Shown: positions 1-53,840 of the stretch, piece after piece
How positions within the stretch are numbered: position 1 is the stretch's first letter
Layout: every line of letters begins with the position of its first letter
Virus record (IMG/VR): IMGVR_UViG_3300037418_002559
Coordinates: 15,999-79,998 of that record
Reading direction: 5' to 3' (one strand)
DNA: 64,000 nucleotides
Origin: a virus
Lineage: Duplodnaviria > Heunggongvirae > Uroviricota > Caudoviricetes
The notes under the pieces: generated by a model
Told to the model about the DNA's origin: nothing
Database searches by the model: none
Seen by the model: only the letters and a program-made list of their open reading frames with translations
Translations under genes and position numbers: made by a program

Positions 1-1
1 C

Positions 2-2071
2 CCGGAGACGTTATTTCCACGTTACGCCGGATTTCAGTTACCTTACTTCAAGCTGGACGGTTCTGTCGACGAAGGCTTTTATCGTTTCCGTCTTCTACAG
101 ACGCAACCATCCAGAGGCTTCGCGGCCATTACCGAAGAGCCGAAGAAGCCGCGCCGTTACACCCAACCGCTGAATACGCAGTGCGGCGTGTATCTACCGC
201 CTCTCTTCGACGATTCTTGGGCCGTTATTGCCAAGAACCCAGAAATAGAGATCATCATTACCGAAGGCGAGCTGAAGGCAGCCTGCGCCTGCAAAGTAGG
301 CTTCCCCACCATTGGGCTGGGCGGCGTGTATAACTGGCGCAGCAGCAAGCAGAAGCAAGAGCTACTCCCCATTCTAGAGAAATTCAACTGGCTGGGCCGC
401 AAGGTGGTCATCTGCTTTGACAGCGACGCCATGACCAATCCTATGGTGCGTATGGCGGCCAGTCGTCTGGCCTATATATTGGCCATGCGCGGCGCGCACG
501 TGAAGTTCGCCCACATTCCGGAGGGGGAAGAGGCGGAGGACGGAACCCGTAAGAAGCAGGGTCTGGACGACTTTATTTATTCCTACGTGGTTGCGGCGAC
601 TTCGTCTTCGTCGTCTAGTCGCCAGAGTCCTAACCAAAAGAAGCTGGAAGCGCTGGAGGCTGCCGGACTGGAGGCCGGGACCGAGGCCTTCTACCACGTC
701 TTGCAGGAAGCGGAGGAGCTAGGGCCGGGGCAGGAGCTGCATCGGCTGAACGACGAAGTAGCCATTATACGCACCACCGGGGAAGTGGTGGAGCTATACA
801 CCGGCAATGTATACAGCCAGTCCGTATTCAGTGATACTGTGTATCGTAACCGTAAGTATCAGGATCACGCCGATGACAGCGGGCGCATGGTCACCAAATA
901 TGCCGCCAAGGAGTGGATTGGTTGGCGTATGCGCAATGATGTGGCCGCGTTGGCCTACGAGCCTGCCTGCACCAATATGCTGACCGCTAACGGTGAGTAC
1001 AATACGTGGTACGCGCAGCGCTGGCCCTTGACGCCCAAGCGTACCGGCACCATGGCGCCGTGGGAGAAGCTGTTCAAGCAGGTATTCGGCAGCCTCACGC
1101 CGGAGCACCAAACCTGGGTGCGGCAGTGGCTGGCCTATCCAATCCAGAAGCCGGGCACTAAGCTGTACACCGCCATGCTGGTCTGGGGCAAGGGGCAAGG
1201 TACTGGTAAGACGCTTATCGGCGAGCTGATGGAGGCCATCTACGGGCGCAACTTCGGCACCGTGGATCATGACCAGTTGAGCAGCCCATTCACCGAATGG
1301 GCACACGATAAGCAATTCATACTAGGCGACGAGATATCCATCGGCGACAAGCGCGGCCTCGCCAACAAGCTCAAGGATATGATTACGCGCCGCTCTGTCA
1401 TCATCAACATCAAGAATCGTAAGACCTACCGCGTGCGCGACTGCATTAACTATTACTTTACGTCCAACAGCGAGTCGGCGCTGTATATTGAGAACGCCGA
1501 CCGGCGCTACTTTATCCATCACGTGGACCAGCAGACGCTGGATAAGGAGGAGTATATTGCCATTCGTAAGTGGTGGGATAGCGGTGGGGCTGCGCGCCTA
1601 TTCTACTACTTCCAGAACGAGGTTGACCTGACCGGATTCGAGCCGACGGCGCACGCGCCCATTACCCACGCCAAGCTGGAGATGGCCGTGGCGGGGCGTA
1701 GCGAGATTGAAGACTGGGCGCACGATCTTGTGCGCGATCCAGACAGTATTCTGCGCGGAGACAAGACCTTTGACCTATGGCGCACGGAAGACCTGCTGGA
1801 CGTGTGGGAGGCCAAGGACGGTCGTAAAGGCAAGGCCGGTAATAAGGCATTGAGCGCTGCGCTGAGTAATGCCGGAGCCTTCCGGATTGCGAATGGGCAG
1901 AATGGCGCTATTATCAATGGTGCGCGCAGTAGGTTGTGGGCGCTCCGTAATGTGGACCAGTATCGCAAAATGGGCGCAGCCCCAGCCGGTAAGATGTACG
2001 AGGCCGAGCGTCCGCAGCAGCGTATCGTCGGCGATAGTAGGAAGTTCGCCGCTGGTAAGCGGGTGCAGTAG
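2..2071 (+). CDS. DNA primase-helicase (Toprim-like N-terminal part, SF3/D5-type P-loop helicase), 5' end outside window
   Basis: Frame is open from nt 2 with no stop, so the gene continues upstream of the window. Toprim-like segment IIITEGELKAACAC...VICFDSDAMTNP. Walker A VWGKGQGTGKT. Walker B-like ILGDEISIG. TAG stop at 2069-2071. Confidence 0.8.
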   Translation, partial: PETLFPRYAGFQLPYFKLDGSVDEGFYRFRLLQTQPSRGFAAITEEPKKPRRYTQPLNTQCGVYLPPLFDDSWAVIAKNPEIEIIITEGELKAACACKVGFPTIGLGGVYNWRSSKQKQELLPILEKFNWLGRKVVICFDSDAMTNPMVRMAASRLAYILAMRGAHVKFAHIPEGEEAEDGTRKKQGLDDFIYSYVVAATSSSSSSRQSPNQKKLEALEAAGLEAGTEAFYHVLQEAEELGPGQELHRLNDEVAIIRTTGEVVELYTGNVYSQSVFSDTVYRNRKYQDHADDSGRMVTKYAAKEWIGWRMRNDVAALAYEPACTNMLTANGEYNTWYAQRWPLTPKRTGTMAPWEKLFKQVFGSLTPEHQTWVRQWLAYPIQKPGTKLYTAMLVWGKGQGTGKTLIGELMEAIYGRNFGTVDHDQLSSPFTEWAHDKQFILGDEISIGDKRGLANKLKDMITRRSVIINIKNRKTYRVRDCINYYFTSNSESALYIENADRRYFIHHVDQQTLDKEEYIAIRKWWDSGGAARLFYYFQNEVDLTGFEPTAHAPITHAKLEMAVAGRSEIEDWAHDLVRDPDSILRGDKTFDLWRTEDLLDVWEAKDGRKGKAGNKALSAALSNAGAFRIANGQNGAIINGARSRLWALRNVDQYRKMGAAPAGKMYEAERPQQRIVGDSRKFAAGKRVQ

Positions 2072-7824: not shown

Positions 7825-7995
7825 ATGAACATGTGGACTTTGGTGAAGGCATTACTCTTGAAGGACTTGATTGGATTCTGTATCGGTGTCGCGTTCGTGG
7901 CGCTGTTCGCTCTTGTGGCTGCGCTCGTGGCTTGGCGTGAACAGGTCTGGGACAAGAAGCATCCATACGCGGTGCGAAAAGGAGAGAAGCGATGA
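7825..7995 (+). CDS. small membrane protein (one TM helix)
   Basis: Hydrophobic GFCIGVAFVALFALVAALVA segment. Confidence 0.4.
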   Translation: MNMWTLVKALLLKDLIGFCIGVAFVALFALVAALVAWREQVWDKKHPYAVRKGEKR

Positions 7996-8222
7996 CCAAG
8001 GTATGGGACTGCGTGGCGGTTAGCTGTCCGTCTTGCGACGCGGAGCCGGGGCAGCGGTGTCAACCACGCAAGCAGCGCAGCATGCGGAAGGAAGTGGATT
8101 ACCCGCACGTGGCGCGGCTCAGAAAGCACCGACGGACTGGCGCTGAGGCCCCGTTGATGGAAAACGCCAAGCTGTTCTTGCTAGCAAGATTCGTTAAAAG
8201 GAGTACGGGTGACAGAGGATGA
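7992..8222 (+). CDS. zinc-finger small protein
   Basis: CPSCDAEPGQRC. Confidence 0.4.
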   Translation: MTKVWDCVAVSCPSCDAEPGQRCQPRKQRSMRKEVDYPHVARLRKHRRTGAEAPLMENAKLFLLARFVKRSTGDRG

Positions 8223-9126
8223 GACGACCGCGCATATTCGGGCAGCGTTGGCTGGCGGTCAAGACTCTTACACGGCGCTTCACAAAGAAGTAACGAAGAT
8301 AGTGAAGCCCGTCAGCTATAAGTTCTTCCATGGCTCCGCTGAGGGCGAGGACTTCGAATGTGAAGCGGCCACGCACGTGCTTATGCGGCTAGACAAGTTC
8401 AACGGGGATTCTAGATTTTCCACTTGGGTCACGCGTGTGGCTCTTAATGAAGCACACGAAAGATTTCGTGGCAAGGCCAAGCATCATCGTGCCTTGTTGT
8501 CATACGACGCGGCGGAGGAGGAATCGGGGAAATCGCTGATAGCGACCTTCGCGGATCCAAGTGATGCGTACGCACAGATAGAAGTGAAGCAACTACTGGC
8601 CGTCGTGCTCGGCAGTCTCAGCGCGGAGAGCCAGTATCTGTTGACGGCGAAATACATGCAAGGCTACAGAAGCCAATACATGGCCGACGAATTGGGCATT
8701 ACGCTGGCCGCTTTGAAGGCACGCGTACACAGAGCACTACTGGAGGCAAGAACGATTATGGAAGGTCTTAATAATGGCACCAGTGCCCCACTGCACGCGA
8801 GCGCGCCAGCCGAGCTTGTGCCGGTCAACCCACGCAGCGGCAATCGACTAATTACGTGCGCCTGCGGCTGCAATCTGACTTGCGAGGCCACGGGACCGCG
8901 CCAGAAATACATCCCCGGTCATGCGCCGACGCCAGCGCCGGTGAAGACAGCGCGCGGCGACAAGATGAAGGCGTTCCCACACCTTGCGCCGCGCGCACAA
9001 GAAACTGTGCAGCTCAGCGTGCCGGTCAAAGCGCTGGACCACCTGCTCTCCATGCTGCCTGCCAAGACCAAGGCCAAGGCCGTGGAGTCCGCGCTGGCGG
9101 AGATGTACGCGCAGGCGGGAGAATAA
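8209..9126 (+). CDS. ECF-type RNA polymerase sigma factor with ~110-aa Cys-containing C-terminal extension
   Basis: GTG start after AAAGGAG. Region 2 FSTWVTRVALNEAHERFR resembles the FSTWLYRIARN consensus. Region 4 HTH LLTAKYMQGYRSQYMADELGITLAALKARVHRAL. C-terminal CACGCNLTC. Confidence 0.7.
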   Translation: MTEDETTAHIRAALAGGQDSYTALHKEVTKIVKPVSYKFFHGSAEGEDFECEAATHVLMRLDKFNGDSRFSTWVTRVALNEAHERFRGKAKHHRALLSYDAAEEESGKSLIATFADPSDAYAQIEVKQLLAVVLGSLSAESQYLLTAKYMQGYRSQYMADELGITLAALKARVHRALLEARTIMEGLNNGTSAPLHASAPAELVPVNPRSGNRLITCACGCNLTCEATGPRQKYIPGHAPTPAPVKTARGDKMKAFPHLAPRAQETVQLSVPVKALDHLLSMLPAKTKAKAVESALAEMYAQAGE

Positions 9127-10539: not shown

Positions 10540-11256
10540 ATGTCAGTGTCGAAGATTTGGTTCCAGTGTCCCTCTTGCCTAAGATGCTGCTACAACATAT
10601 GCATTGGCGGGATATGGCGTTGCGAACTATGCTTTCCGCCCATAGCTTCTGATCGAGAATCGGTTGCATCTCCCGCAGAGGACGCACGGCAAAGCGCTAC
10701 CGAATCTCTCCCCGCCCAACCGGAGCAGGTACGGCTATGTCCGCATGGCTTTGACGTAGGGTGTTTCGTCTGCAATTTTAAGCCGGTTGCATCTCTTCCC
10801 GTAGAGGACAAAGAGAAAGAACAGCCATGTGCTCATTACGGGGTATCCGGGCAGATAAATGGGAAGAAACAGTGTTCTATCTGCTATGACAGCGATCCGA
10901 AGCCCACTCAGATAGCAGAGGCCAAAGAGAAGTGTGACCTTTGCGGGCAGCCTAAAAATGACGGTTGGAATCATGCCCGTGAGAGTGGATATGTTGATTT
11001 CGCAACTGTTTCCTGCTCGGCTCCGGTGGTAGCAGAGGCCAAACCCTCTCCCGACCTGGACGCAGCGTTTGAGGAGCTACTTCGAGAGCCTTCGTGGAAG
11101 GAAATGAAAGTGTGCAACAACCGTCAGCGAGAATTGAATGCCCCTGCCGGAGCAGACATAAGCGCCGTCAATGCACAAAAGAAGGCCATTGGTGAAATGT
11201 TGGCTGCTCGACTGGCAGCATGGAACGCCGCAATCAAGAAAGCAGAGACCCGATGA
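10540..11256 (+). CDS. Cys-rich (multi CxxC) protein
   Basis: CPSCLRCC, CPHGFDVGCFVC, CSICYD, CDLCGQ. Confidence 0.5.
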   Translation: MSVSKIWFQCPSCLRCCYNICIGGIWRCELCFPPIASDRESVASPAEDARQSATESLPAQPEQVRLCPHGFDVGCFVCNFKPVASLPVEDKEKEQPCAHYGVSGQINGKKQCSICYDSDPKPTQIAEAKEKCDLCGQPKNDGWNHARESGYVDFATVSCSAPVVAEAKPSPDLDAAFEELLREPSWKEMKVCNNRQRELNAPAGADISAVNAQKKAIGEMLAARLAAWNAAIKKAETR

Positions 11257-11756: not shown

Positions 11757-11986
11757 TGGCAGACGGTAGAGTGCAGCGGTTACAGTTCAGGACAACAGCG
11801 CAGGGAGCATTGGACTGTCTGCCACATCCCGAAGGCGGCTTCGTGCATTACGCCGACTACGCCAAGATCGAAACCGAACTCAAAGAAACAAAGAGGGCGC
11901 TGGAGATAATGGCGCTCGACCCTGAAGAGTTCGCAGTGTACCTCGCTTTGGCACGCGAGGAGATAAAGGACGAATCATGCGAGTGA
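11756..11986 (+). CDS. hypothetical small protein
   Basis: GTGATG overlapping the upstream stop. Confidence 0.4.
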   Translation: MADGRVQRLQFRTTAQGALDCLPHPEGGFVHYADYAKIETELKETKRALEIMALDPEEFAVYLALAREEIKDESCE

Positions 11987-12414
11987 AGCAGCTGGTATTA
12001 AAACTGTGTCCGGGGCTGGTGTGCTCCAACTTCGGGGATCAGAAGTTGTGGTCCATACGACTGGAGGATTCTGGCAACGCGCTGGCGGCGTCCAATGAAT
12101 CGGAGGAGGACGCTTGGCTGGAGATGCTTATACGGCTGCTGCGATGCGCCACCGAGGAGGAGCTGCGGGAGCAGGGACGCTCGCTGGCACGTAGTTACAA
12201 GCCGGGGCCGAGACAGGCGTCGCCGTTTCCGCCAGTGTCTCCCAGTGGGAGGCTTGGCGTATACAAACCGAAGCGGCGCACTTACGAAACGTCGGACATA
12301 AAGGAGTTACACCAGGCTATTATTAATAAAATAGCACTAACGCAGATAGCCGCATCAGGTGTAAGTGAGTCGGACTGTCTGGAATGGATCAAGCAGCAAC
12401 TGGAGGCCGTATGA
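11977..12414 (+). CDS. hypothetical protein
   Basis: ORF track entry. Confidence 0.45.
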   Translation: MRVKQLVLKLCPGLVCSNFGDQKLWSIRLEDSGNALAASNESEEDAWLEMLIRLLRCATEEELREQGRSLARSYKPGPRQASPFPPVSPSGRLGVYKPKRRTYETSDIKELHQAIINKIALTQIAASGVSESDCLEWIKQQLEAV

Positions 12415-12929
12415 GATGGAAGTGGGCTTGCCTTGGTATTGTTGGTGTCAGCGTTGCGCTGGGCGCGGCGGTCATATCGTACTGCCGCGTGGCAATTAAG
12501 CAGCAGCATAGTCAAAAGACGCTCAAGCGCTGGGCCGCTTGGCGTGTCGCGCATCCGGCGTGGAAGAAGAGCACGGCAGAGACGCTCGCGGCGCTAGACT
12601 TTACCTGTGGCCCTATCGCCACGCTCGACGCCACTACGCCAGCCACTCTAGTGCCGTTTCAGAGTGATGACAATGTGGCCGCACTTGAACCCAGTTTGCC
12701 GCTGCTACCTAAGACGGAAATTCCGTCGGAGCCGTTGTTCGCAAGCACATACGCCCCGCCGCAAAGTACCCTGCCTTATTCTGTAATACCGTTGCCCGTT
12801 CCAGTTGCGTATCCTGCGCCTTCGCCTGTGCCAGAGCCCAGCTCATTCATCTTTATGCTGAGCGGACTCGCGGCGCTGTGCGTAGGGCGTCAATCTTTCG
12901 CTTGTACTACCTCAGAAGGAGAGAAATGA
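12411..12929 (+). CDS. membrane/secreted Pro-rich protein with C-terminal PEP-CTERM-like sorting signal
   Basis: GGAGG SD then ATG at 12411. N-terminal TM WACLGIVGVSVALGAAVI. C-terminus VPEPSSFIFMLSGLAALCVGRQS. Confidence 0.55.
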   Translation: MRWKWACLGIVGVSVALGAAVISYCRVAIKQQHSQKTLKRWAAWRVAHPAWKKSTAETLAALDFTCGPIATLDATTPATLVPFQSDDNVAALEPSLPLLPKTEIPSEPLFASTYAPPQSTLPYSVIPLPVPVAYPAPSPVPEPSSFIFMLSGLAALCVGRQSFACTTSEGEK

Positions 12930-13450
12930 ACTGTTCTACCATTTTGAATACCGAATCGTTAGCCGTCTTGGTTCTGTCGATAGGCTATGCGCTACTGGCA
13001 CTTGCGTATATTGCCTGTATAGCAAGCAAGCGCAAGACCATGCTAGGCAGAGTGCGCGAGTTTCACAAGCGCTTCGACTGCTACACGGCGTCGGACGGTG
13101 TCAGCCTGCCGCCGGAAGACGTCATGGAGCTGCGACGCAGCCTGATCGCAGAGGAATTCTGGGAGCTCATGGACGCCATGGGGCGCGACGACCTCGTTGA
13201 TGTCGCCGATGCGATCGTGGATCTGCACTATGTATTGTCCGGAACGTCGCTGGTATATGGCCTACCGGAAGACGCCGTGTTCGACGAAGTGCACAGGTCC
13301 AACATGTCCAAGGCTGAGCCGGATGGCACGGTCCATCGCCGCGCCGATGGCAAGATACTGAAGGCTGCGCGCTGGACGCCGCCTGATATCGCCGGAGTCT
13401 TGGCGCGCCACGGCGGCTCGGTAATTACGCGCAAGGCGGTAAGATCGTGA
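12926..13450 (+). CDS. MazG-like nucleoside triphosphate pyrophosphohydrolase with N-terminal TM helix
   Basis: Strong AAGGAGAG SD before the ATG at 12926. TM LAVLVLSIGYALLALAYIACIA. MazG core EEFWELMDAMGRDDLVDVADAIVDLHYV. Confidence 0.7.
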   Translation: MNCSTILNTESLAVLVLSIGYALLALAYIACIASKRKTMLGRVREFHKRFDCYTASDGVSLPPEDVMELRRSLIAEEFWELMDAMGRDDLVDVADAIVDLHYVLSGTSLVYGLPEDAVFDEVHRSNMSKAEPDGTVHRRADGKILKAARWTPPDIAGVLARHGGSVITRKAVRS

Positions 13451-15903: not shown

Positions 15904-16147
15904 GAATTGGCTTTGGTTTGCAGGCATAGCGGTTTTGGCTGCGCTACTGTTGGCGGCCTTTTGCGGCGTACTCAACACGACATCCAAGGCCGAGTACGTA
16001 CGCAAGAACAGGTGCGTGCTGACAAGTGACAGCCCGGATTCCAAGCTCTTTCTGCACGGCAGGGTACATGAAGAGCCAGGCTGGAAGACCTACGCGTGCC
16101 CCGACAACGTCTTCGTGGTCATCGAAAACGACGAGGAGCAGCCATGA
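15887..16147 (+). CDS. small membrane protein
   Basis: TM WLWFAGIAVLAALLLAAFCGV. Confidence 0.4.
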   Translation: MGAALKNWLWFAGIAVLAALLLAAFCGVLNTTSKAEYVRKNRCVLTSDSPDSKLFLHGRVHEEPGWKTYACPDNVFVVIENDEEQP

Positions 16148-16229: not shown

Positions 16230-18632
16230 ATGACAAACTACAGAAAAGCAGTAACGACAACCGGACGGTTGTCGAGTGGAACATCTAATTTACAGAAGAC
16301 GCCGTCGGCTTCATTCAGCGTCATCAAGCACGCAGTAGCCAGACAGTTTGAGTTGATGAAGGCGGACCGGTTGTTCCGCGTCGATCTAAGCGCTACATCT
16401 TCTGAGGTGCTTCTGGTGAAGTACGCCACGAACGGCGTAGAGACTCTGTCGTCAAAACAGCGCGTAGCCGCTACCGGAGACATTCTCTGGGAGGCCTACC
16501 TCGCGGCGTTCCCCGAGGGCACCAATCCCATCTACCGCGAGCGCACTGACCACGATTGCTCCTGCTGCCGTCATTTCATCAGAACGATGGGCGGCGTGGT
16601 CGCAATCATCGACGGCGAGTTGACCACGATTTGGGATGGAGAGCGCACCGGCACCTTCTACGACACAGTGCGCGAGAGAATGGCCGAACTGGTGCGTAGT
16701 GCCGTCATTGATAACATTTTCCTGCACACCGAGAGTTCCGTCGGCGTGGAGAAGACCTTTCAGCAGTTAGTGGCCGGTACTAAGCTTTCTGAAACTGTAA
16801 CGCAGTTTGAGAAAGGTGGCGTTCTTACTTGGGAGCACTTCCACCTGCACCTGCCAAACGCCGCCGTGCAGCGCAAAGACACCATCGGTTCGGCCTTAGC
16901 AGAAACAAGGGCTGCGCACGACGTGCTCAAGCGCGGACTGGAGGAGCTCACGCTCGACAGCGTCGACACCGTTCTGGAGCTCATCGCGCAGAACTCGCTG
17001 TACCGTGGCGAGGAGCACAAGTTCGTGCTGACTGAGTTCCGCAAGCTGAAGGTGGCGTACGGTGTGGAGAACGCGGAAAGGCCGTCAGGCGTGGATGTCG
17101 GCGCTTCGGTTCTGAAAGCGGCTGACAAGATGTACGGCATGCTGGGCAGCCGCGACGTGGAGCTAGACCGAGCACGCGACCTGTTCGTCTGGGATCGCTC
17201 CGTCGCCCTGCCGCCCGCCGTCGTGCGCATCCGCAACTCCGCCATCGGTACGCTGCTGATCGACTTGTCCGCCGACGTGGATCTGACAGAGGCGGTGCGC
17301 AAGTTCGAGACGAGCGTCATGGCTCCGGCGAACTACAAGCGGCCCACGGCGCTAGTGACCAAGGCGATGATCGAGAAGGCGCGCGCCAAGGTGGAAGGGC
17401 TTGGCTACACGTCCGCGCTGGAGCGGCGCTACGCGCACATCGACGACATCACGATCAACAACGTGTTGTTCGCTGACCGTACCGCGACCAAGCTGCACAA
17501 GGACGCCTTTGACGCACTGTCGGCACAGGTAGCCGAGAATCCCAGAAGCTACGATCGGGTGACAGAGGTGCCAATCGAAAAGTTCTTGGCTGAGGTCATG
17601 CCGAAGGCACGCTCGTTGGAGCTTCTGGTGGAGAATTGCCATGTCAGTAACCTCGTCAGCCTGATCGCGCCGGTCGATCCGGGCGCGAAGGGCATGTTCA
17701 AGTGGCCCAACAACTTCAGCTGGTCCTACAACGGCGAAGTCACGGACTCTATCAAGGAGCGGGTCAAGCGTGCCGGGGGCAGCGTGGTCGGCGACCTGTG
17801 CTGCAGGCTGGCTTGGGACTACACCGACGATCTGGACTTCCACATGCAGGAGCCGGGTGCGCCCAGACTGCTGGGCGGCTGGCTTTCCGCGCAAGGCAAC
17901 CACATCTACTACGGCAACGTGCGCCAGTTGTCCGTCAACGGCGGCATGCTGGATCTCGACGCCAATGGTTGCGATGGCATGAAGCCCGAACCGGCGGAGA
18001 ACATCTTCTACGCCGACAAGTGCACGATGGCCGAAGGCGTGTATGCTCTGTCCGTGCACAACTACAGACGTCGTGACGGCGGCAACGGTTTCGAGGTAGA
18101 GGTCGAGGTCGGCGGTGCGACGCACAGCTTCGTCTACGACAAACCGCTGCGAACTACCGAGACGGTGCACGTGGCGAACATACACTACTCGCGGGACGCG
18201 GGCTTCCGCGTGGAGGCTCTTATTCCGTCCACGCAGACCAGCAAGGCGGTGTGGGGCTTGCACACGCAGACATTCCAAAAGGTGAACGTGGTCATGCTGT
18301 CGCCGAACTATTGGGGCGGTGCGCACGTCGAGCGCGACGCTACCAACTCTGACATCGCGCGCAGTCTTGGCGACTTCGGCGTCGGCAACAAGCACTACTT
18401 CTTCATGCTGGAAGGCTGCCGCAACGAGGGACGGGCGCGCGGGTTCTTCAACGAGTTCCTGTCTGCCGAGCTGGAACCGCACCGCAAGACCATGGAGATG
18501 GTTGGCGCCAAGATGCGCACGGAGGAGGCGGAGCGGCAGCTGTCCGGCTTAGGCTTCAGCTCCACGCAGCGCGCGTCGGTGCTGTGCCGGGTCAAGGGCA
18601 GCGTGGACCGCGTCGTGAAGGTGGTGTTCTGA
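16230..18632 (+). CDS. large hypothetical protein (800 aa), no recognised domain
   Basis: Long ORF with its own promoter-like element. Contains HDCSCCRHF. No family recognised by eye. Confidence 0.7.
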   Translation: MTNYRKAVTTTGRLSSGTSNLQKTPSASFSVIKHAVARQFELMKADRLFRVDLSATSSEVLLVKYATNGVETLSSKQRVAATGDILWEAYLAAFPEGTNPIYRERTDHDCSCCRHFIRTMGGVVAIIDGELTTIWDGERTGTFYDTVRERMAELVRSAVIDNIFLHTESSVGVEKTFQQLVAGTKLSETVTQFEKGGVLTWEHFHLHLPNAAVQRKDTIGSALAETRAAHDVLKRGLEELTLDSVDTVLELIAQNSLYRGEEHKFVLTEFRKLKVAYGVENAERPSGVDVGASVLKAADKMYGMLGSRDVELDRARDLFVWDRSVALPPAVVRIRNSAIGTLLIDLSADVDLTEAVRKFETSVMAPANYKRPTALVTKAMIEKARAKVEGLGYTSALERRYAHIDDITINNVLFADRTATKLHKDAFDALSAQVAENPRSYDRVTEVPIEKFLAEVMPKARSLELLVENCHVSNLVSLIAPVDPGAKGMFKWPNNFSWSYNGEVTDSIKERVKRAGGSVVGDLCCRLAWDYTDDLDFHMQEPGAPRLLGGWLSAQGNHIYYGNVRQLSVNGGMLDLDANGCDGMKPEPAENIFYADKCTMAEGVYALSVHNYRRRDGGNGFEVEVEVGGATHSFVYDKPLRTTETVHVANIHYSRDAGFRVEALIPSTQTSKAVWGLHTQTFQKVNVVMLSPNYWGGAHVERDATNSDIARSLGDFGVGNKHYFFMLEGCRNEGRARGFFNEFLSAELEPHRKTMEMVGAKMRTEEAERQLSGLGFSSTQRASVLCRVKGSVDRVVKVVF

Positions 18633-20201: not shown

Positions 20202-20681
20202 ATGCCACAATTGTTCTTAGACTGCGATGGTGTCGTAGCCGATTTTGATGGTTATTTTTTGTCTGTATTTGGTGTACCTCCAACGGAGGTTGAGATCACG
20301 CATGGTACGCAGTATCTGTATGCACTGTTGCAGGGGCATAAAGATTTTTACTTTAATCTGCCGCTCTTACCAGATGCAATGCAACTATACAGCGCGGTAG
20401 CGCATCTAAAACCAATCATCCTTACCGGGCATCCGAACACCAGTACACCAGCTTGGGCCATTAACCAGAAATTGCGCTGGACGGCGCACCACTTTCCAGG
20501 CGTACAGACCATCGTGTGCCCTTCTAAAGAAAAGTGCAAACACATGAAGCGCTTCGGTGATGTACTGGTGGACGATCGTTTGAAGTACATGCATTTCTGG
20601 ACTGAGGCTGGTGGAATTTTTGTGTGGCATACTTCTGCCGAAGAGTCCATTTCAAGATTGAAAGAGCTGGATATCTTATGA
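20202..20681 (+). CDS. HAD-family 5'(3')-deoxyribonucleotidase (NT5C-like)
   Basis: N-terminal FLDCDGVVADFDG (DxDGV HAD motif I), typical of NT5C. Confidence 0.75.
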   Translation: MPQLFLDCDGVVADFDGYFLSVFGVPPTEVEITHGTQYLYALLQGHKDFYFNLPLLPDAMQLYSAVAHLKPIILTGHPNTSTPAWAINQKLRWTAHHFPGVQTIVCPSKEKCKHMKRFGDVLVDDRLKYMHFWTEAGGIFVWHTSAEESISRLKELDIL

Positions 20682-21715
20682 CGGAATTACAGCTAGTAGC
20701 GCGCGAACTGGAAAAGGCTCTGTGCCCAGAGGACGTATTCGGCGTAGATATCAAACGGTCTTTCCGACAGCTAGTCAAAATCGTACACCCTGATTTCAAC
20801 AAGAATGCACTCTTCGCGCACGAGACGATGGAGCGGCTGAACGAGCTGAAGAGCATAGCCGATGCGCGGGTGGAGGCCGGCACGTGGGGAACGCGCTTGC
20901 CGTTTCCTTGGCATGAAGTAGTTGAGATTGGCGGCTACGCGGTGGCGCAGAGACCGCTAGTCGGCGACGTTGCTGACGTTTACGTAGGGATTGAATACGT
21001 CGTCAAAGTAGCCAGAAATTCAGACGACAACGATTTGATGCGAGCCGAACGCGCGGCGCTCTCGCTCCTGGCGAGCAAAGTCAACACGAAAGTAGCGGCT
21101 GCATTTCCCACGTTGCGAGGACACTTCCAGCAGAGTAATCGTGACACAAACGTACTGCGCAAAGTACCAGATGGGTTCCTGCCTGCGGAGGAAGTCCATC
21201 GTAGAATGCCGTCTGTAGACGGACGTGCTTTGGTTTGGATGTTCAAACGGCTGCTGGTGGCGCTGGAATGGGCACATCACTGCGGGCTTGTGCACGGGGC
21301 GGTGCTGCCGTCGCACGTCATGCTCTACCCGGACAACGACGGCACCACGACCAATCCGCATCCCTGCAAGCATACAGTGCGCCTGTTAGATTGGTGCTAC
21401 AGCGTAAGGTACGCGGAGCGTACGCGGTTGTCATCCTGGGTGCCAGCCTGGACTGCGCACTATCCACCCGAGTTATTATTAAAGCAATCGGTTACACCCG
21501 CGTCGGATATTTTCATGGCAGCCAGTTTGATTGCGTATCTTGCGGGAGGTATCGACGGCACAGAAGCGCCGCTGCGAGCAGTAATCGAGCGCTGCGTGCT
21601 GGCTGATGTTACAAAGCGTTATCAAACCGTGGCCCATGTATTCACGGATTGGAATGCGGCTGCCCAGCGTATATACGGGCCACCGAAATGGGTAGACTTC
21701 AACCTGCCGGAGTAA
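20678..21715 (+). CDS. J-domain fused to a protein-kinase-like domain (degenerate catalytic loop)
   Basis: J-domain FRQLVKIVHPDFNKN (HPD). Kinase-like YVVKVAR, RAERAAL, HCGLVHGAVLPSHVML (Asp replaced), RLLDWCYS. Confidence 0.65.
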   Translation: MTELQLVARELEKALCPEDVFGVDIKRSFRQLVKIVHPDFNKNALFAHETMERLNELKSIADARVEAGTWGTRLPFPWHEVVEIGGYAVAQRPLVGDVADVYVGIEYVVKVARNSDDNDLMRAERAALSLLASKVNTKVAAAFPTLRGHFQQSNRDTNVLRKVPDGFLPAEEVHRRMPSVDGRALVWMFKRLLVALEWAHHCGLVHGAVLPSHVMLYPDNDGTTTNPHPCKHTVRLLDWCYSVRYAERTRLSSWVPAWTAHYPPELLLKQSVTPASDIFMAASLIAYLAGGIDGTEAPLRAVIERCVLADVTKRYQTVAHVFTDWNAAAQRIYGPPKWVDFNLPE

Positions 21716-22426: not shown

Positions 22427-23377
22427 ATGGGCGGAGGAAGTTGGGATACAGGGCGATACACAAGCGCCAAGACTACAAGGGCTGCAAAGGGAGTGGATGA
22501 CTTCCACTACTCAAAGACAGCAAGCAAGACTCACAGCAATCTCGACCCGAAGCGCATCAGTGCCAAGCCGTTCGCCAAATTGGAAAGCCGTGATTCGGAA
22601 GAACACCCGCAGAGTAATCCGGTGCTGGTGTGCTTCGACGTTACTGGTTCTAACTATACGCGGGCCGTCGACGCGCAGAAGCGCCTGCCGAACCTGATGG
22701 AGCTGCTCGGGCGCTACTTGCCAGATCCGCAGGTTGCCGTGGCTGCGAACGACGACTACAACTCGGTTGGCGACCAGTGCCTACAGATATCTGACTTCGA
22801 GAGCGACAATCGCGTGGACGAGCACATACGCTCCATACGGTTGACCAGCGAGGGCGGAGCCAACGATGGGGAATCCTACGACCTCATGCTGTACGCGGCG
22901 GCGCGGAAGACGACAACCGACTCCGTGGAGAAGCGCGGCAAGAAAGGCTACTTCTTTATGTACGCCGACGAGCCAATCTTCACCAAGGTAAGCGCTAACG
23001 AGGTAAAGTCCGTATTCGGCGACGTAGTACAACGGGACATCCCCATTGCGGAGATCATCGAGGAGGTGCGGCGCACTTGGCAATTGTTCGTCATATACCC
23101 TATTGGCGGCTACAAGCACGCGCGCAACCAGTACGTGGAGCTGTTCGGCGAGGAGTCGGTACTGGATTTGCAGGACGCCAATCTCATCTGCGAGCTGATA
23201 GCCTCCACTGTCGGTCTGTATGAGGGGAAGGCCACACCAGTATCTTTGGTCACCGACCTAGTATCCGTTGGTCTGGACCGAAACGAGGCGTCCACCATGG
23301 TGAGCCACGCTCTTGTAAAAACACAAAGCAGTAGCACGTTATCTACATCCGGTGGAGGCAAGGCCGCACGGTTGTAG
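22427..23377 (+). CDS. von Willebrand factor A domain protein
   Basis: MIDAS-like VLVCFDVTGSN; AAGGAGAA SD. Confidence 0.6.
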   Translation: MGGGSWDTGRYTSAKTTRAAKGVDDFHYSKTASKTHSNLDPKRISAKPFAKLESRDSEEHPQSNPVLVCFDVTGSNYTRAVDAQKRLPNLMELLGRYLPDPQVAVAANDDYNSVGDQCLQISDFESDNRVDEHIRSIRLTSEGGANDGESYDLMLYAAARKTTTDSVEKRGKKGYFFMYADEPIFTKVSANEVKSVFGDVVQRDIPIAEIIEEVRRTWQLFVIYPIGGYKHARNQYVELFGEESVLDLQDANLICELIASTVGLYEGKATPVSLVTDLVSVGLDRNEASTMVSHALVKTQSSSTLSTSGGGKAARL

Positions 23378-23597
23378 CATTGTGAGTGAGCGCCTCTGCC
23401 ACGGTAGTACCTGTGGATTCTCCCCACGGCGGCGCTTTCTTGCTTTGGATGGGCGTAGAACGGTCATGCGCCCATCGGAGTTCCTTATTGTGGGAACCAG
23501 TTGCAGCGTGAACCCGAGGCGAACGGGGCGCGTCATGCTGCGCAGGCTGCACGTAGGGAACTCCGATGGTTGCATGAACAAACGGGAAGAGGACAGA

Positions 23598-24764
23598 ATG
23601 AGTAGAGCAATCTTGGTGCAGGGCTTAGCCTATGGCGATGAGTGCAAGGGCGCAACAGTGGATTTTCTTTGCCGTCAGCTACCGGTAGACTTGGTGGTGC
23701 GGTTCAATGGCGGTAGTCAGGCAGCGCACAACGTGTGTACGACGGAGGGAGCACACCACACGTTCAGCCAATTCGGCTCTGGCACGCTTGCGGGAGAACA
23801 CGTGCGGACGCATCTTTCGCGCTTCATGCTGGTTGACCCATTGACGATGATGAACGAAGCGGCTGCTTTGCGTGAACAACTGGGAGTGCAGCCTTGGCGC
23901 GGTTTAACGGTGGATCCTCGATGCGTAATCATCACACCATTCCACAAGCAGGTGAATCGACTGCGCGAGATGGCACGCGGATTGGCGCGGCACGGCAGCT
24001 GCGGGATGGGTGTAGGCGTGGCACGCGAATGGCAGTTGAAATATGGTGACGCCGTGCTGTACGCGGAGGATGTGCTTGACACCCAGAAGGTGACGGAGAA
24101 GCTACGATTCTTGCTGAACCTTGCTTGCCAAGAGTTTGGTGTAACGCTGATGAGCTACAGTGAGATTAATCTGCGTGAGCTTGCCTACACCTACGCGAAG
24201 TGGCCGGTTGTGCTCGACACGATGCCCAAGTCCGATTTGGCGGTCTTCGAAGGTGCGCAGGGCGTCCTGTTGGATGAAACGCACGGCGAAGCGCCTTATC
24301 ACACATGGACGGATTGTACGTTCAACAATGCGGACACGCTTTGCGCAGAGGCCGGTATTACGGATCGCTTCAGAGTGGGTTGCGCGCGTGCCTACCTTAC
24401 GCGACACGGCGCTGGGCCATTGCCTGGCGCTTTAGCGCACGACCCTGCTTGGCACCCAGCGGAGCCGCACAATGTCACCAATGAGTTCCAAGGACCGTTT
24501 CGCGTAGCACCAATGAACTTCTTCTTGCTACGCAAGGCAATGAGCTACATCGGCAGCCTAGATTGCCTAGCAATCAGCCATCTGGATGTGTACGGCGGCG
24601 GCGTACTGGACACGCGTTTGATGCACGATCTGCTGGGCGTATTCGAGCAAGAGCTGGCTACGCCTATTGGAATCAAGGCTTGGGGGCCTACCGCACTCAA
24701 CCGTGAGTTCACGCCAGCGTGGACCACGGCTTGGGCAAGGATCTTAGAAGAGGCTGCGCAATGA
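23598..24764 (+). CDS. adenylosuccinate synthetase family protein, short divergent form (PurZ-like candidate)
   Basis: GDECKGA corresponds to PurA GDEGKGK. VVRFNGGSQAAHN, FEGAQGVLLD, RAYLTRHGAGP. 388 aa versus about 430 for bacterial PurA. Confidence 0.75.
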   Translation: MSRAILVQGLAYGDECKGATVDFLCRQLPVDLVVRFNGGSQAAHNVCTTEGAHHTFSQFGSGTLAGEHVRTHLSRFMLVDPLTMMNEAAALREQLGVQPWRGLTVDPRCVIITPFHKQVNRLREMARGLARHGSCGMGVGVAREWQLKYGDAVLYAEDVLDTQKVTEKLRFLLNLACQEFGVTLMSYSEINLRELAYTYAKWPVVLDTMPKSDLAVFEGAQGVLLDETHGEAPYHTWTDCTFNNADTLCAEAGITDRFRVGCARAYLTRHGAGPLPGALAHDPAWHPAEPHNVTNEFQGPFRVAPMNFFLLRKAMSYIGSLDCLAISHLDVYGGGVLDTRLMHDLLGVFEQELATPIGIKAWGPTALNREFTPAWTTAWARILEEAAQ

Positions 24765-48317: not shown

Positions 48318-49163
48318 ATGAAAAATTTAACGCTCATCATACCCACGCATGGCCGGGTGGGAAAGCAAACCACGCTCCAAGCATTACCGACCAAACTTCA
48401 GGCCGAGGTCATTCTCGTTACTTCTCTGCCAGGAGAAGCGAAAGAGCTGCGCGCCCTTTACCCTAAGAACGAGGTAGCCGTAGCCAAGGGGACTACGTCT
48501 ATCGCTACCAAGCGGCACTGGATTATGCAGAACATTAAAGGCCGCATGCTGTTCATGCTGGACGACGACATAGCCTTCTTTGAGCGCTGCCCGCCCAAGT
48601 GGCGCGTGTGGGAGCCGCACCGCAAGGCCTACGCCTTGGCCAAGGAGGCCCCGGCCGACGCTGCCTTGATGAAGCGCCTGTATCCGCAGGACGCCAAGCT
48701 GCTCTCTTTGTTTCAGGACATGGATAAACGGGTGGCTTCACACAAACCAGCCATGATTGGTATAGCGCATCGGCGGCACAGCGATAAGAAGCAGGAATCA
48801 TGGGAAGTCAACGCGCGCATGATGTACGCATTCGGCGTAGATCCGGCCATTTACAAGGAAGAGAAAATTCGGTTCGATCGTGTAGGACTTCGTGAGGATT
48901 TCCACGTTGTTCTAAGCATGCTGCGCAGAGGACACGAGTGTCATAATTATCTGGAGCTACTGAACAATGAGTATGGCTCGTTCGGCGCTGCTGGTGGGTG
49001 CAGTGGTGAACGCTCCATGGAGTACAGCAACGAGCAGTGCTACGCGCTGCAGAAGCTGCACCCGGAGTTCGTCAAAGTTGTGGAGAGAGATTACAAAGGC
49101 TCCTTTCCACGCAAAGAGGTAGTCGTAGCCTGGAAGAAAGCATTTGAAAGTAGCAAGCAATGA
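48318..49163 (+). CDS. GT-A-fold (DXD) glycosyl/phospho-group transferase
   Basis: GGAG SD; LTLIIPTHGR (GT2-like N-terminus); MLFMLDDDIAFF (DXD). Confidence 0.6.
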   Translation: MKNLTLIIPTHGRVGKQTTLQALPTKLQAEVILVTSLPGEAKELRALYPKNEVAVAKGTTSIATKRHWIMQNIKGRMLFMLDDDIAFFERCPPKWRVWEPHRKAYALAKEAPADAALMKRLYPQDAKLLSLFQDMDKRVASHKPAMIGIAHRRHSDKKQESWEVNARMMYAFGVDPAIYKEEKIRFDRVGLREDFHVVLSMLRRGHECHNYLELLNNEYGSFGAAGGCSGERSMEYSNEQCYALQKLHPEFVKVVERDYKGSFPRKEVVVAWKKAFESSKQ

Positions 49164-51440: not shown

Positions 51441-52511
51441 ATGTTTAGTTATAAAGCACATGATGTAAATGAAGCGCTCTCATTCGGCCTGCAGCATTTA
51501 CTGCGTGAAGGCATCGAAGAAACCAGTCGTGTGGGTCCAGTGCTCGTAGCACCCGGCCCTGTGTGTATTGAATATGTAAACCCAAGACAGCGAGTTTTGT
51601 ATAGTCCAACACGTGACGCGAACCACGTATTCCATCTTATGGAATCACTGTGGCTGCTGTCTGGTAGCAACGAGATTGAATTTCCGGTATTCTTTAACAA
51701 AGCCTACGCACAGTTCAGCGACGACGGAACTACGATATGGGACAGCTACGGTTGGCGCTGGCGGCAGTTCTTTGGCTATGATCAATTGGAAGAAATCGTC
51801 GCAGAGCTAAAGAGGAATCCCAGCTCAAGGCGCTGCGTGCTGAGTATGTGGAATGGCGCAGAATGGTCGGCAGGCAATGGTCCTGATCCGTCTTGGGCGC
51901 GTGAAGACGGGCTTTGGATGCAAAGCGATCTTAGTGTAGCTTGCAATGGTGGCAAAGCGGTCCCCTGCAACACGCATGCGTATTTCGCTGTACGTGGTGG
52001 TAAGCTCAACATGACGGTCATGAATCGCTCCAACGATGCTATGTGGGGCTGCTTCGGCGCGAATGCCGTTCACTTCAGCTTACTGCTGGAATACATGGCT
52101 GTGCGTGTTGGGTTGCCTATGGGTAGTTACTTCCAGTTCACAAACAACCTGCACACCTACACCGATAAATTCAGTGTAGACATGCTCAATACAATAGAGC
52201 ACGAATGCGATACGGTTGGCGCGCTGCCGCAACCTGGCCCTGCGATTGAACCTGGATTTGACGAGGATCTGCGCCTATTCATGCCTTGGGCACTGTCAGT
52301 TATACGTTCGACGCCGGGGGATACTTTGCGCGCGCTGAACGTACCACAATTAGAAACACCATTCATGTATTCCGTAGTAGCTCCTATGTTTTTGTTCTGG
52401 GTGTATCGTAAGTGGAAAGACGAGTACAGCAGCTCTATTTGCTTGAATGGTATTGATGCGCCAGACTGGCAACGGGCTTGTGAAGAATGGAAGGAGCGTA
52501 GACGTAAGTGA
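51441..52511 (+). CDS. ThyA-family pyrimidine C5 hydroxymethylase/methylase (likely dUMP hydroxymethylase)
   Basis: MESLWLLSGSNE, DQLEEIVAELKRNPSSRRCVLSMWN, catalytic PC in VPCNTHAYFAVRGGKLNMTVMNRSNDAMWG, TNNLHTY. 356 aa with a C-terminal extension. Confidence 0.8.
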   Translation: MFSYKAHDVNEALSFGLQHLLREGIEETSRVGPVLVAPGPVCIEYVNPRQRVLYSPTRDANHVFHLMESLWLLSGSNEIEFPVFFNKAYAQFSDDGTTIWDSYGWRWRQFFGYDQLEEIVAELKRNPSSRRCVLSMWNGAEWSAGNGPDPSWAREDGLWMQSDLSVACNGGKAVPCNTHAYFAVRGGKLNMTVMNRSNDAMWGCFGANAVHFSLLLEYMAVRVGLPMGSYFQFTNNLHTYTDKFSVDMLNTIEHECDTVGALPQPGPAIEPGFDEDLRLFMPWALSVIRSTPGDTLRALNVPQLETPFMYSVVAPMFLFWVYRKWKDEYSSSICLNGIDAPDWQRACEEWKERRRK

Positions 52512-53095
52512 AAGAGGTTCTGCAATTCATCATGGAAGGTGGTAGTGTGCAGCGCTACCACACGCGTCCGGGCATAAGGCCGGACACAAACGCGCACCAC
52601 AGCCATGGCGTCCTGATGCTGGCCAGTCTGCTGGCCGGTCAGAATGAGCAAACAGGCTGCACGCAGGCTAGTGTTAATTTACTCATGGCATGTGCTACGC
52701 ATGATTTGGCGGAGCAACTGGCCTGCGATGTAAGCGCGCCAGCCAAGCGGTTGCTCGGTATACGTGAGCTTCTGCATGACTTGGAGTCCAACGAGCTGAG
52801 AACGCATCTGCTCGACTACGAGCAGCACCTTACAGAAGACGAGCGTACTATTCTGCAGCTTGCCGATTGCTTTGATGGTATGATGTATTGCTGTCGAGAG
52901 CTTGCTCTGGGTAATAGAAATGCCTTGCTCATCTGGCGTCGGTTTTGCAGTTACATAACTAAGATTACAGCACAACACGACATTGAGTTTGAAATTGGGC
53001 TGCGCGCCAGTGTGATGTTTGAATCCATCAAAGAAATCTACAGAGAGGTTACAAGTGTCACAGGACCAGAATTCGACATCTTCAAAGGCAAATGA
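52508..53095 (+). CDS. HD-domain phosphohydrolase, YfbR/OxsA/DatZ-like 5'-deoxynucleotidase
   Basis: RYHTRP...NAHHSHGVLMLASLLA...CATHDLAEQ...DCFDGMMY. GTGA overlap with the ThyA-like stop. Confidence 0.7.
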   Translation: MKEVLQFIMEGGSVQRYHTRPGIRPDTNAHHSHGVLMLASLLAGQNEQTGCTQASVNLLMACATHDLAEQLACDVSAPAKRLLGIRELLHDLESNELRTHLLDYEQHLTEDERTILQLADCFDGMMYCCRELALGNRNALLIWRRFCSYITKITAQHDIEFEIGLRASVMFESIKEIYREVTSVTGPEFDIFKGK

Positions 53096-53333: not shown

Positions 53334-53380
53334 AAAGACCCTCTCCTAAGCCCACAAAAGGGGCCAAGGAGAGGGTCTTT
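53334..53380. terminator. bidirectional intrinsic terminator between convergent modules
   Basis: 14-bp perfect stem AAAGACCCTCTCCT / AGGAGAGGGTCTTT with an inner GCCC/GGGC stem. Lies between the TAA at 53325-53327 (+) and the lysin stop at 53379-53381 (-). T-rich tails on both strands. Confidence 0.7.
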
Positions 53381-53840
53381 ATGCTTGCAATAAAGCTGCG
53401 TGCGCATGCAGGATAGAAGTGCAGGTTGCGCTCCGCGCCGGGTCCGTGCTCCACGTCATTGACACTTGTCGTAGGAACTCTTCAGGCGTGCCGGCCACGA
53501 GCGCCGCCGCGTAGTGCGGGTAGCTTGGTGCCAACCGTTTGAGAGTGTCCATCCGGTCGGCAAAGCAGGCCGACAGTGACGGGTAGTTTATAAAGTCGGC
53601 CTGTACAACCGTCCAGTGTCCGTCCAAGAACTCTCGTGTTGGCAGGCTGACAGTGGCGTAGACCGGGTGGCTGTGCTGCTTCATGCCGAACCCGTTGTTG
53701 TAATCCAGGAAGAGGCGCGAGGTTCCCCACGCGCTCTCCACCATCATCTCGCAGGCCTGCGCATTGGGGAATAGCACCCCAGAGGCGCAGGCCTGCTCGT
53801 AGGCGCGTCGTAGCGCCGCTTGTTGCTGCTGTGTTATCAT
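53379..53840 (-). CDS. endolysin, mannosyl-glycoprotein endo-beta-N-acetylglucosaminidase (FlgJ-type glucosaminidase) domain
   Basis: ESAWGTSRLFLDYNNGFGMK matches the glucosaminidase signature ESGWG.S.L...NN.FGIK. Confidence 0.7.
   Translation of the reverse strand: MITQQQQAALRRAYEQACASGVLFPNAQACEMMVESAWGTSRLFLDYNNGFGMKQHSHPVYATVSLPTREFLDGHWTVVQADFINYPSLSACFADRMDTLKRLAPSYPHYAAALVAGTPEEFLRQVSMTWSTDPARSATCTSILHAHAALLQA

Follow-up and report, generated by a model that had tools for sequence, protein, structure and literature searches.

Phages appear to borrow the host exosortase pathway: a phage-borne protein family with a PEP-CTERM-type sorting signal

Does a phage gene really encode a protein with a PEP-CTERM sorting signal, the type of C-terminal signal recognised by bacterial exosortases, and what could a phage do with it? 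The question is raised by gene P0001 in a 64,000-nucleotide stretch (positions 15,999 to 79,998 of IMG/VR record IMGVR_UViG_3300037418_002559; hereafter the window) of an uncultured phage of ~100 kb, a lytic-looking myovirus. The initial annotation, made from the letters of the window, had described the product as a phage-encoded protein with canonical PEP-CTERM architecture. We find this call essentially right, although the word 'canonical' was overstated. The reading that we favour, and hold to be reasonably probable, is that the gene belongs to a rare, fast-evolving accessory family, so far seen only on phage-like contigs, whose product is built to enter the PEP-CTERM/exosortase pathway of the host. 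The gene and the parts of its product are the following:

12411..12929, plus strand: PEP-CTERM gene P0001, 172 aa, stop codon included (ORF list, sequence, independent gene call, 23 homologues)
12411..12470, plus strand: putative Sec signal peptide, residues ~1-20 (MRWKW, hydrophobic core, ALGA), from the family consensus and the AlphaFold2 helix 2-25
12483..12620, plus strand: conserved head domain, residues 25-70 (C25 ... H33-S34-x2-T37-L-x2-W41-x2-W44-x3-H48-P-x-W ... C66)
12621..12824, plus strand: linker, residues 71-138, Pro/Thr/Ser-rich, acidic and non-conserved
12825..12893, plus strand: PEP-CTERM domain, residues 139-161 (P-VPEP, the hydrophobic SSFIFMLSGLAALCVG, R161)
12894..12926, plus strand: atypical 11-residue tail, residues 162-172 (QSFACTTSEGEK minus its first Q; includes FACTTSEGEK)

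The gene is real: the open reading frame is present in the ORF list and in the sequence, and the Logan contig SRR35144446_227978, an independent public assembly, gives a gene call for the same 172-aa product with identical bounds. The N-terminal part of the protein reads MRWKWACLGIVGVSVALGAAVISYC and the C-terminal region PSPVPEPSSFIFMLSGLAALCVGRQSFACTTSEGEK. Residues 1-24 (MRWKWACLGIVGVSVALGAAVISY) comprise a basic n-region (R2, K4) followed by a hydrophobic helix, and residues ~1-20 are a probable Sec signal peptide, the cleavage site of which we infer; the family consensus here is a basic n-region, a hydrophobic core of 12-14 residues and L-[GA]-A-E. Pro makes up 23% of the linker between Cys66 and V140. 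Both the N-terminal signal segment and the Pro-rich linker of the initial annotation are borne out. V140-P141-E142-P143 is encoded by 12828-12839 (PEP by 12831-12839) and is followed by the 16-residue hydrophobic stretch, with a top 14-residue Kyte-Doolittle window of 2.29, and then by R161. PF07589 matches residues 139-159 and, with 23.6 bits (E = 5.1e-05), passes its gathering score of 20.7; all five NCBIfam matches are to PEP-CTERM models on this same stretch. When the six-frame open reading frames of the window and 34 loci were filtered for a PEP followed by a hydrophobic 14-mer no more than 45 residues from the stop, only three passed: the 12411..12929 gene, the identical gene in L001 and a weak ORF in antisense orientation.

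The family-level evidence exceeds these single-sequence scores, and the PEP-CTERM call therefore stands on much firmer ground than it did. An exhaustive HMMER scan of 1.84 billion protein cluster representatives gave 23 distant relatives of 30-45% identity (E from 3.2e-16 to 7e-4), most of which align over the full length and all of which keep the motif; the per-member counts given here were made on a 22-sequence alignment. The architecture common to the family is a signal peptide, a helical Cys/Trp/His head of ~45 residues, an acidic Pro/Thr-rich linker of variable length and the PEP-CTERM. Over the 22 homologues, P141, E142 and G152 never vary, and conservation of P143 reaches at least 90%. 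The tails of the homologues are mostly of textbook PEP-CTERM type (for example TPEPSSLALLGTGFFGCAMLAVRRRRA, TPEPGTLVLLGTGLLGLAAVRRRKK and VPEPATLALLGSGFVGLVALIRRRVK); PF07589 matches 17 of the 22 members at E <= 0.01, and TIGR02595 matches the same number at E <= 0.1 and 15 at E <= 0.018, which corresponds roughly to its 16-bit cutoff. Mean pairwise identity is 41% in the tail, 39% in the head and 23% in the linker, from which the sorting tail appears to be constrained at least as much as the folded head. The linkers are unalignable but share a composition of 18% Pro, 10% Thr, 13% Asp plus Glu and only 1.4% Lys plus Arg, in agreement with the basic-poor, Thr/Pro-rich character that Haft et al. 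2006 (PMC1569441) give for PEP-CTERM proteins.

The consensus of the head over the family is C...H-S-x2-T-L-x2-W-x2-W-x3-H-P-x-W-x-P...E-T-L-A...A-C, extending over ~45 residues, with C25, W41, W44 and H48 invariant and H33, S34, T37, A65 and C66 nearly so. In an AlphaFold2 run on the 172-aa protein with the 22-sequence alignment, the head was modelled as helices 35-47, 49-52 and 56-66, with block-mean pLDDT of 87 and 92 across residues 31-50, while the linker was without secondary structure (pLDDT 54-61). The only long hydrophobic helices in the model are 2-25 and 143-166, with no transmembrane (TM) segment between them; helix 143-166 is a predicted TM helix, and Cys25 and Cys66 would be joined by a disulfide. 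The head domain is new, as it gave no match in Pfam, PHROG or PDB sequences (E >= 0.5, noise) or among BFVD folds (none with E < 2.5).

The family is rare. A word-indexed search with the single protein returned only the query itself, the same search with the full alignment at least seven proteins, and with the head-only alignment no match. PHROGs contain no family match, tblastn of the protein and of the family-consensus head against 50,697 GenBank phages yielded nothing credible, and a related-locus search with P0001, P0002 or sub-alignment A2 found no IMG/VR locus beyond L036. Of the 23 homologues, 17 fit a back-translated DNA pattern of the head. In IMG/VR this pattern led to the P0003 contig alone, in JGI metagenomes to one real fragment (L047) plus six chance matches, and in 185,579 bacterial and archaeal species genomes (one per species) to no family member. 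The three matches in the species genomes all lack the family architecture; none overlaps rRNA, and the one in L041 is antisense to a 532-aa gene. All ten genomic contexts examined other than the window are phage-like; three are syntenic with the window phage, one is an IMG/VR contig, and each contig has one copy of the gene:

L037, 76.6 kb: P0002; same phage type as the window
99.9-kb contig in GCA_015689235.1: P0021; Phage_zn_bind_8, sigma factor, DUF8224
L055, 100 kb: P0012; DUF8224
IMGVR_UViG_3300050821_003663, 103.7 kb: P0003; glucosaminidase, Kyano_Gp96
L053, 88 kb: P0004; K1-lyase tailspike, lysozyme; integrase two genes downstream
L054, 60 kb: P0013; QueD/QueE, DnaB, prohead protease
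L056, 59 kb: P0005; PolA
L040, 439-kb contig: P0024; methylases, NAMPT, DUF5131
L039 and L035, two short contigs: P0008 and P0025

Between the window and L037, the primase is 80% identical, DUF8224 61% and the other neighbours 57-80%, whereas the PEP-CTERM proteins, located in the same position, share only 32%. The PEP-CTERM protein thus diverges fast relative to its neighbours, as is typical of host-interface genes. The contigs outside the syntenic relatives have little in common with the window beyond the PEP-CTERM gene, and the gene therefore moves between phage lineages. In L053 (10001..12050) the family gene lies two small genes upstream of a tyrosine integrase at the contig end, in an unrelated temperate-looking phage; this is a typical place for a lysogenic-conversion gene. 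The MazG-like neighbourhoods of 33 IMG/VR loci contained no orthologue of the PEP-CTERM gene, the phages being unrelated in that region.

Two relatives are unusual in their layout. P0012 (L055 4807..5682, 291 aa) runs past a canonical PEP-CTERM (…LLRRK) into an apparent second signal peptide and another domain, which may be a read-through fusion, a lost stop codon or a sequencing error. The metagenomic fragment L047 (Ga0160428_1100350, minus strand, 1..414) has the head motif HSKATLKAWAIWRHEHPLWKAK (E = 4e-11 against the head HMM) with a hydrophobic segment directly after the head and neither Pro-rich linker nor PEP-CTERM, so the head can occur with another anchor.

In the window, the PEP-CTERM gene lies in the early/replication block of the phage, between two co-oriented genes:

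11977..12414, plus strand: upstream gene, 145 aa, matching no family; its stop codon runs into the start of the PEP-CTERM gene
12402..12406, plus strand: Shine-Dalgarno-like GGAGG, 4 nt 5' of the ATG (from the sequence)
12926..13450, plus strand: downstream gene of a MazG-like (PRA-PH) pyrophosphohydrolase (PF01503, E = 1.2e-13)

An ATGA overlap is found on both sides of the gene: its ATG overlaps the upstream TGA (12412-12414; ATGA at 12411-12414), and its stop (12927-12929) overlaps the ATG (12926) of the MazG-like gene. The overlap with the upstream gene suggests translational coupling of that gene and the PEP-CTERM gene. The AAGGAG of the MazG-like gene (12916-12921) sits within the codons of the PEP-CTERM tail. 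In the window the MazG-like gene separates the PEP-CTERM gene from a conserved downstream gene, and no such gene is present there in L037.

The features of the family are consistent with the following sequence of events. The protein would be exported by Sec and its N-terminal signal peptide removed. The helical head of ~45 residues would then be held in the periplasm on a Pro/Thr-rich acidic stalk of ~70 residues, with the C-terminal helix in the inner membrane; whereas the order of head, stalk and helix is shown, the topology, in which the PEP would lie at the outer face of the inner membrane, is a proposal. A host exosortase would recognise VPEP at the membrane interface, cleave there and pass the protein on to the cell surface or the exopolysaccharide layer, a step suggested by the conserved signal and by what has been proposed for PEP-CTERM proteins in general. 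The biochemistry of exosortases is itself largely inferred, including the cleavage target and the attachment partner. The most likely role of the protein, though a speculative one, would be modification of the surface of the infected or lysogenic cell, for instance by masking receptors, excluding superinfecting phages or remodelling the matrix of exopolysaccharide or flocs; we think of such a role because of the position in the early/replication block of the window phage and of the proximity of the integrase in L053, and by analogy with the phage proteins Llp, Cor and SasX described below. A bolder version can be put forward only tentatively: that phages of exosortase-bearing bacteria routinely carry their own substrates, and that this family is an effector with a disulfide-stapled Trp/His head and a Pro-rich stalk, installed by the host exosortase at the surface or in the exopolysaccharide, where it blocks superinfection or re-engineers flocs or biofilm.

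The source of the exosortase would be the host. The nearest cultured phages are those of Pseudoxanthomonas (PW916) and Stenotrophomonas (AXL3) for PolA and primase, with 36-39% identity, and Burkholderia, Ralstonia and Yersinia phages for the baseplate, with 38-44%. As these infect Proteobacteria, the data point to a proteobacterial host with two membranes, while being silent on exosortase.

A number of observations weigh against entry into the exosortase pathway, most of them concerning the window copy itself. The string quoted in the initial annotation as the C-terminus is not the end of the protein, since 11 residues extend past the PEP-CTERM domain; the PEP, the helix of about 16 residues and the Arg are all in place, but with a single Arg and a neutral tail they do not make the canonical signal that had been claimed. 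In the tail RQSFACTTSEGEK one of the first six residues is basic and the charges sum to 0, so that the basic cluster is absent; the family median is three basic residues, with relatives terminating in RRRRA, RRRKK or KKKVRA. From PEP to the protein end there are 29 residues, the upper edge of the usual family range of 17-29, and Haft et al. 2006 (PMC1569441) place the domain only 'near the C-terminus'. TIGR02595, the model that had been proposed as a check on the call, with a score under its cutoff counting against it, matches residues 140-160 with 14.0 bits, below the cutoff of 16. By these measures the window copy lies at the degenerate end of the family, its tail being among the most degenerate. 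Apart from the tail, no exosortase-like multi-TM open reading frame is present in the window, where three hydrophobic segments per ORF are the maximum, or in the 10 kb that follow (tail genes only), so that, within the 74 kb seen, the phage apparently supplies no exosortase itself; the enzyme would have to be present in the host, as the initial annotation took the signal to imply. Nothing in the searches with the head ties it to a function. The label 'phage-like' relies for several of the contexts on gene content and gene size only. IMG/VR contigs can include host flanks, and some of the loci with PEP-CTERM proteins of other families, which are described below, may lie in host DNA flanking predicted prophages.

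The defects of the tail and the low TIGR02595 score would also fit a degenerate PEP-CTERM that is not processed at all, the protein remaining anchored in the inner membrane with its head across the periplasm, for example as a superinfection-exclusion or injection-blocking protein. The insertion of the MazG-like gene relative to L037 and the placement of its ribosome-binding site in the tail codons speak for the same explanation, and because of them the 3' end of the PEP-CTERM gene may be remodelled. Yet VPEP, the Gly and the hydrophobic length have all been kept, PF07589 scores above its cutoff, and long or weakly basic tails are also seen in P0004, P0007, P0015, P0016 and P0024, all of which retain the PEP, so such tails seem to be tolerated. 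We therefore consider an unprocessed anchor unlikely; with its weakened basic anchor, the window copy may instead be processed less efficiently. Less probable still is that the protein acts as a decoy or inhibitor, an abundant small substrate that jams the exosortase, stops PEP-CTERM sorting in the host and loosens the exopolysaccharide or floc matrix for phage spread. The small size of the proteins, the tail as their most conserved region and the place of the gene among early genes would suit this idea, as would the finding that Zoogloea needs PEP-CTERM proteins and exosortase to form flocs (Gao et al. 2018, cited in PMC12642866), but a decoy could do without a conserved head that contains a Cys pair and Trp and His residues that never vary, and no direct evidence favours it.

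Chance resemblance, in which an ordinary two-helix membrane protein of the phage (a holin, a spanin or another lysis or exclusion protein) has a Pro-rich linker that happens to put PEP before a TM helix, is the explanation to which we give hardly any credence. The linker of the window copy, with its 23% Pro, does contain other xEPx strings (LEPS, SEPL), the motif is short and hydrophobic with correspondingly soft HMM statistics, and the TIGR02595 score is subthreshold. Against this, P-E and the Gly are invariant over 22 sequences whose linkers cannot be aligned, and 15-17 of the 22 members match PEP-CTERM models. A unimolecular spanin of the T1 gp11 type is built alike, with an export signal at the N-terminus, a body that spans the periplasm and a TM helix at the C-terminus. 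Unlike a spanin, however, the family has no lipobox (L-[AS]-[GA]-C; Tyr is at -1 in the window copy), its conserved Cys being located 3-9 residues past the L-[GA]-A-E site; the gene is not beside an endolysin or holin, the endolysin-like gene at 53379..53840 being 41 kb away; and a conserved PEP motif is not known to have a role in spanins. On the conservation of PEP in the family, the absent lipobox and the distance from the endolysin we reject the chance-motif, spanin and holin readings.

Among known systems, the closest is the PEP-CTERM/exosortase system of bacteria (EpsH, Xrt; Haft et al. 2006, PMC1569441; TIGR02595, PF07589). Like the proteins of that system, the members of our family have an N-terminal signal peptide, are free of internal TM segments and have a body that is rich in Thr, Ser and Pro, poor in basic residues and without homology to known families; [VT]PEP stands directly before a TM helix of ~14-16 residues near the C-terminus, and most members have a basic cluster. 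They differ in being located on phage-like contigs, in a single copy per contig, while the bacterial proteins form multi-copy paralogous sets, and the window copy departs further through its missing basic cluster, its 11 additional residues and a TIGR02595 score that falls short of the cutoff. Proteins with a sorting signal are a known class, to which the gene adds a new family. PepA, the flocculation-associated protein of Zoogloea resiniphila and relatives (NF033554), is likewise a small secreted PEP-CTERM protein and is thought to be active in the exopolysaccharide matrix, and NF033554 matches the tail region of 11 of the 22 family members; these matches are, however, confined to the sorting tail and far below the 80-bit family cutoff, the head is unrelated, and PepA is chromosomal. 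Llp of phage T5 and Cor of phi80 and N15 are phage lipoproteins that block receptors, and SasX of Staphylococcus aureus is a prophage-borne LPXTG protein. Our family resembles all of them as a small phage accessory protein with a host sorting signal (lipobox or LPXTG in their case, PEP-CTERM here) that would alter the cell surface, but the sorting machine is another one and there is no sequence relation.

This family is not alone in having a PEP-CTERM signal on a viral contig: viral contigs in IMG/VR commonly encode canonical PEP-CTERM proteins that belong to other families. We scanned IMG/VR with a narrow back-translated canonical tail, V-P-E-P-x4-[LF]-[LF]-G-x-G-L (at least 120 loci, L057-L176), and at least 109 proper C-terminal PEP-CTERM tails were found (109 of the 126 in-frame matches listed). 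Among the matches listed these form at least 50 clusters, one of them with at least 60 members that are secreted proteins of roughly 230-290 aa, and none of the proteins has the head domain of our family. Four of the six representatives tested passed the TIGR02595 cutoff, with 20.8-26.1 bits. Four loci were sampled for their neighbours, among which are DnaB/AAA_25 helicases, DNA methylases and a collagen-like protein. Two of the contigs come from isolate genomes, UViG_649633004_000003 (L076) and UViG_2791355104_000001 (L131). Among the papers retrieved that mention PEP-CTERM together with phage, prophage or auxiliary metabolic genes, none was, judged mostly by title and abstract, about phage-encoded PEP-CTERM proteins; one preprint has a passing remark on a PEP-CTERM domain in a Dehalococcoides element.

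Together with the many PEP-CTERM proteins of IMG/VR, the family points to a strategy of host-surface manipulation in environmental phages. A PEP-CTERM gene in a phage genome may serve as a cheap host-range marker, narrowing the candidate hosts to two-membrane, exosortase-bearing bacteria, and a substrate that is small, borne by a phage in a single copy and equipped with a compact head would make a convenient reporter of the exosortase pathway. If the proteins are indeed effectors, they would constitute a Gram-negative counterpart of the LPXTG and lipoprotein exclusion factors of phages and provide a natural handle on the action of exosortases on their substrates.

The window phage itself has several further traits. 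Encoded in the window are a DUF3854/DUF5906 primase, PolA, an SNF2 helicase, a PurZ-like adenylosuccinate synthetase, a baseplate wedge, a sigma-like factor, an NT5C-like nucleotidase, a glucosyltransferase, and thymidylate-synthase-like and dATPase-like enzymes, and the 10 kb past it contain the contractile tail (sheath, tube, tail terminator, baseplate) and an SLT-domain protein. A PurZ-like protein (23352..24764, plus strand; phrog_1211, E = 9e-60), a dATP-triphosphohydrolase-like protein (52508..53095, plus strand; phrog_7076) and the MazG/PRA-PH pyrophosphohydrolase (12926..13450, plus strand) form a trio resembling a kit for Z-base (2-aminoadenine) synthesis, and the phage may replace A with Z in its DNA. 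A hypermodified pyrimidine besides the possible Z base is suggested by two more plus-strand genes, one like glucosyl-HMC glucosyltransferases (48318..49163; phrog_842, E = 2e-41) and the other thymidylate-synthase-like (51441..52511; phrog_5131, E = 1e-92). The MazG-like protein has a 38-residue N-terminal extension (12926..13039, plus strand) with a 22-residue hydrophobic segment, LAVLVLSIGYALLALAYIACIA; its homologues in other phages are without this extension and begin near an FHKxF motif, and either the pyrophosphohydrolase is membrane-anchored or the start is wrong, an internal ATG being present at 13040.

The 800-aa DUF8224 protein (16230..18632, plus strand; phrog_1735, 809 bits) is encoded by a gene with a 450-nt stretch 73% identical in DNA to Caulobacter phiCbK-type phages, and this gene is kept beside the PEP-CTERM gene region in L037, L055 and the P0021 contig. 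The early region has a run of small Cys-rich ORFs with many CxxC pairs (10540..11256, plus strand, and neighbours), including a Phage_zn_bind_8 gene at ~7992..8222 of the window (from L001 5582..5812) and a sigma-70-like protein at 8209..9126. A 345-aa protein (20678..21715, plus strand), 60% identical in L037, gives weak DnaJ-like and protein-kinase-like matches, both below the Pfam cutoffs.

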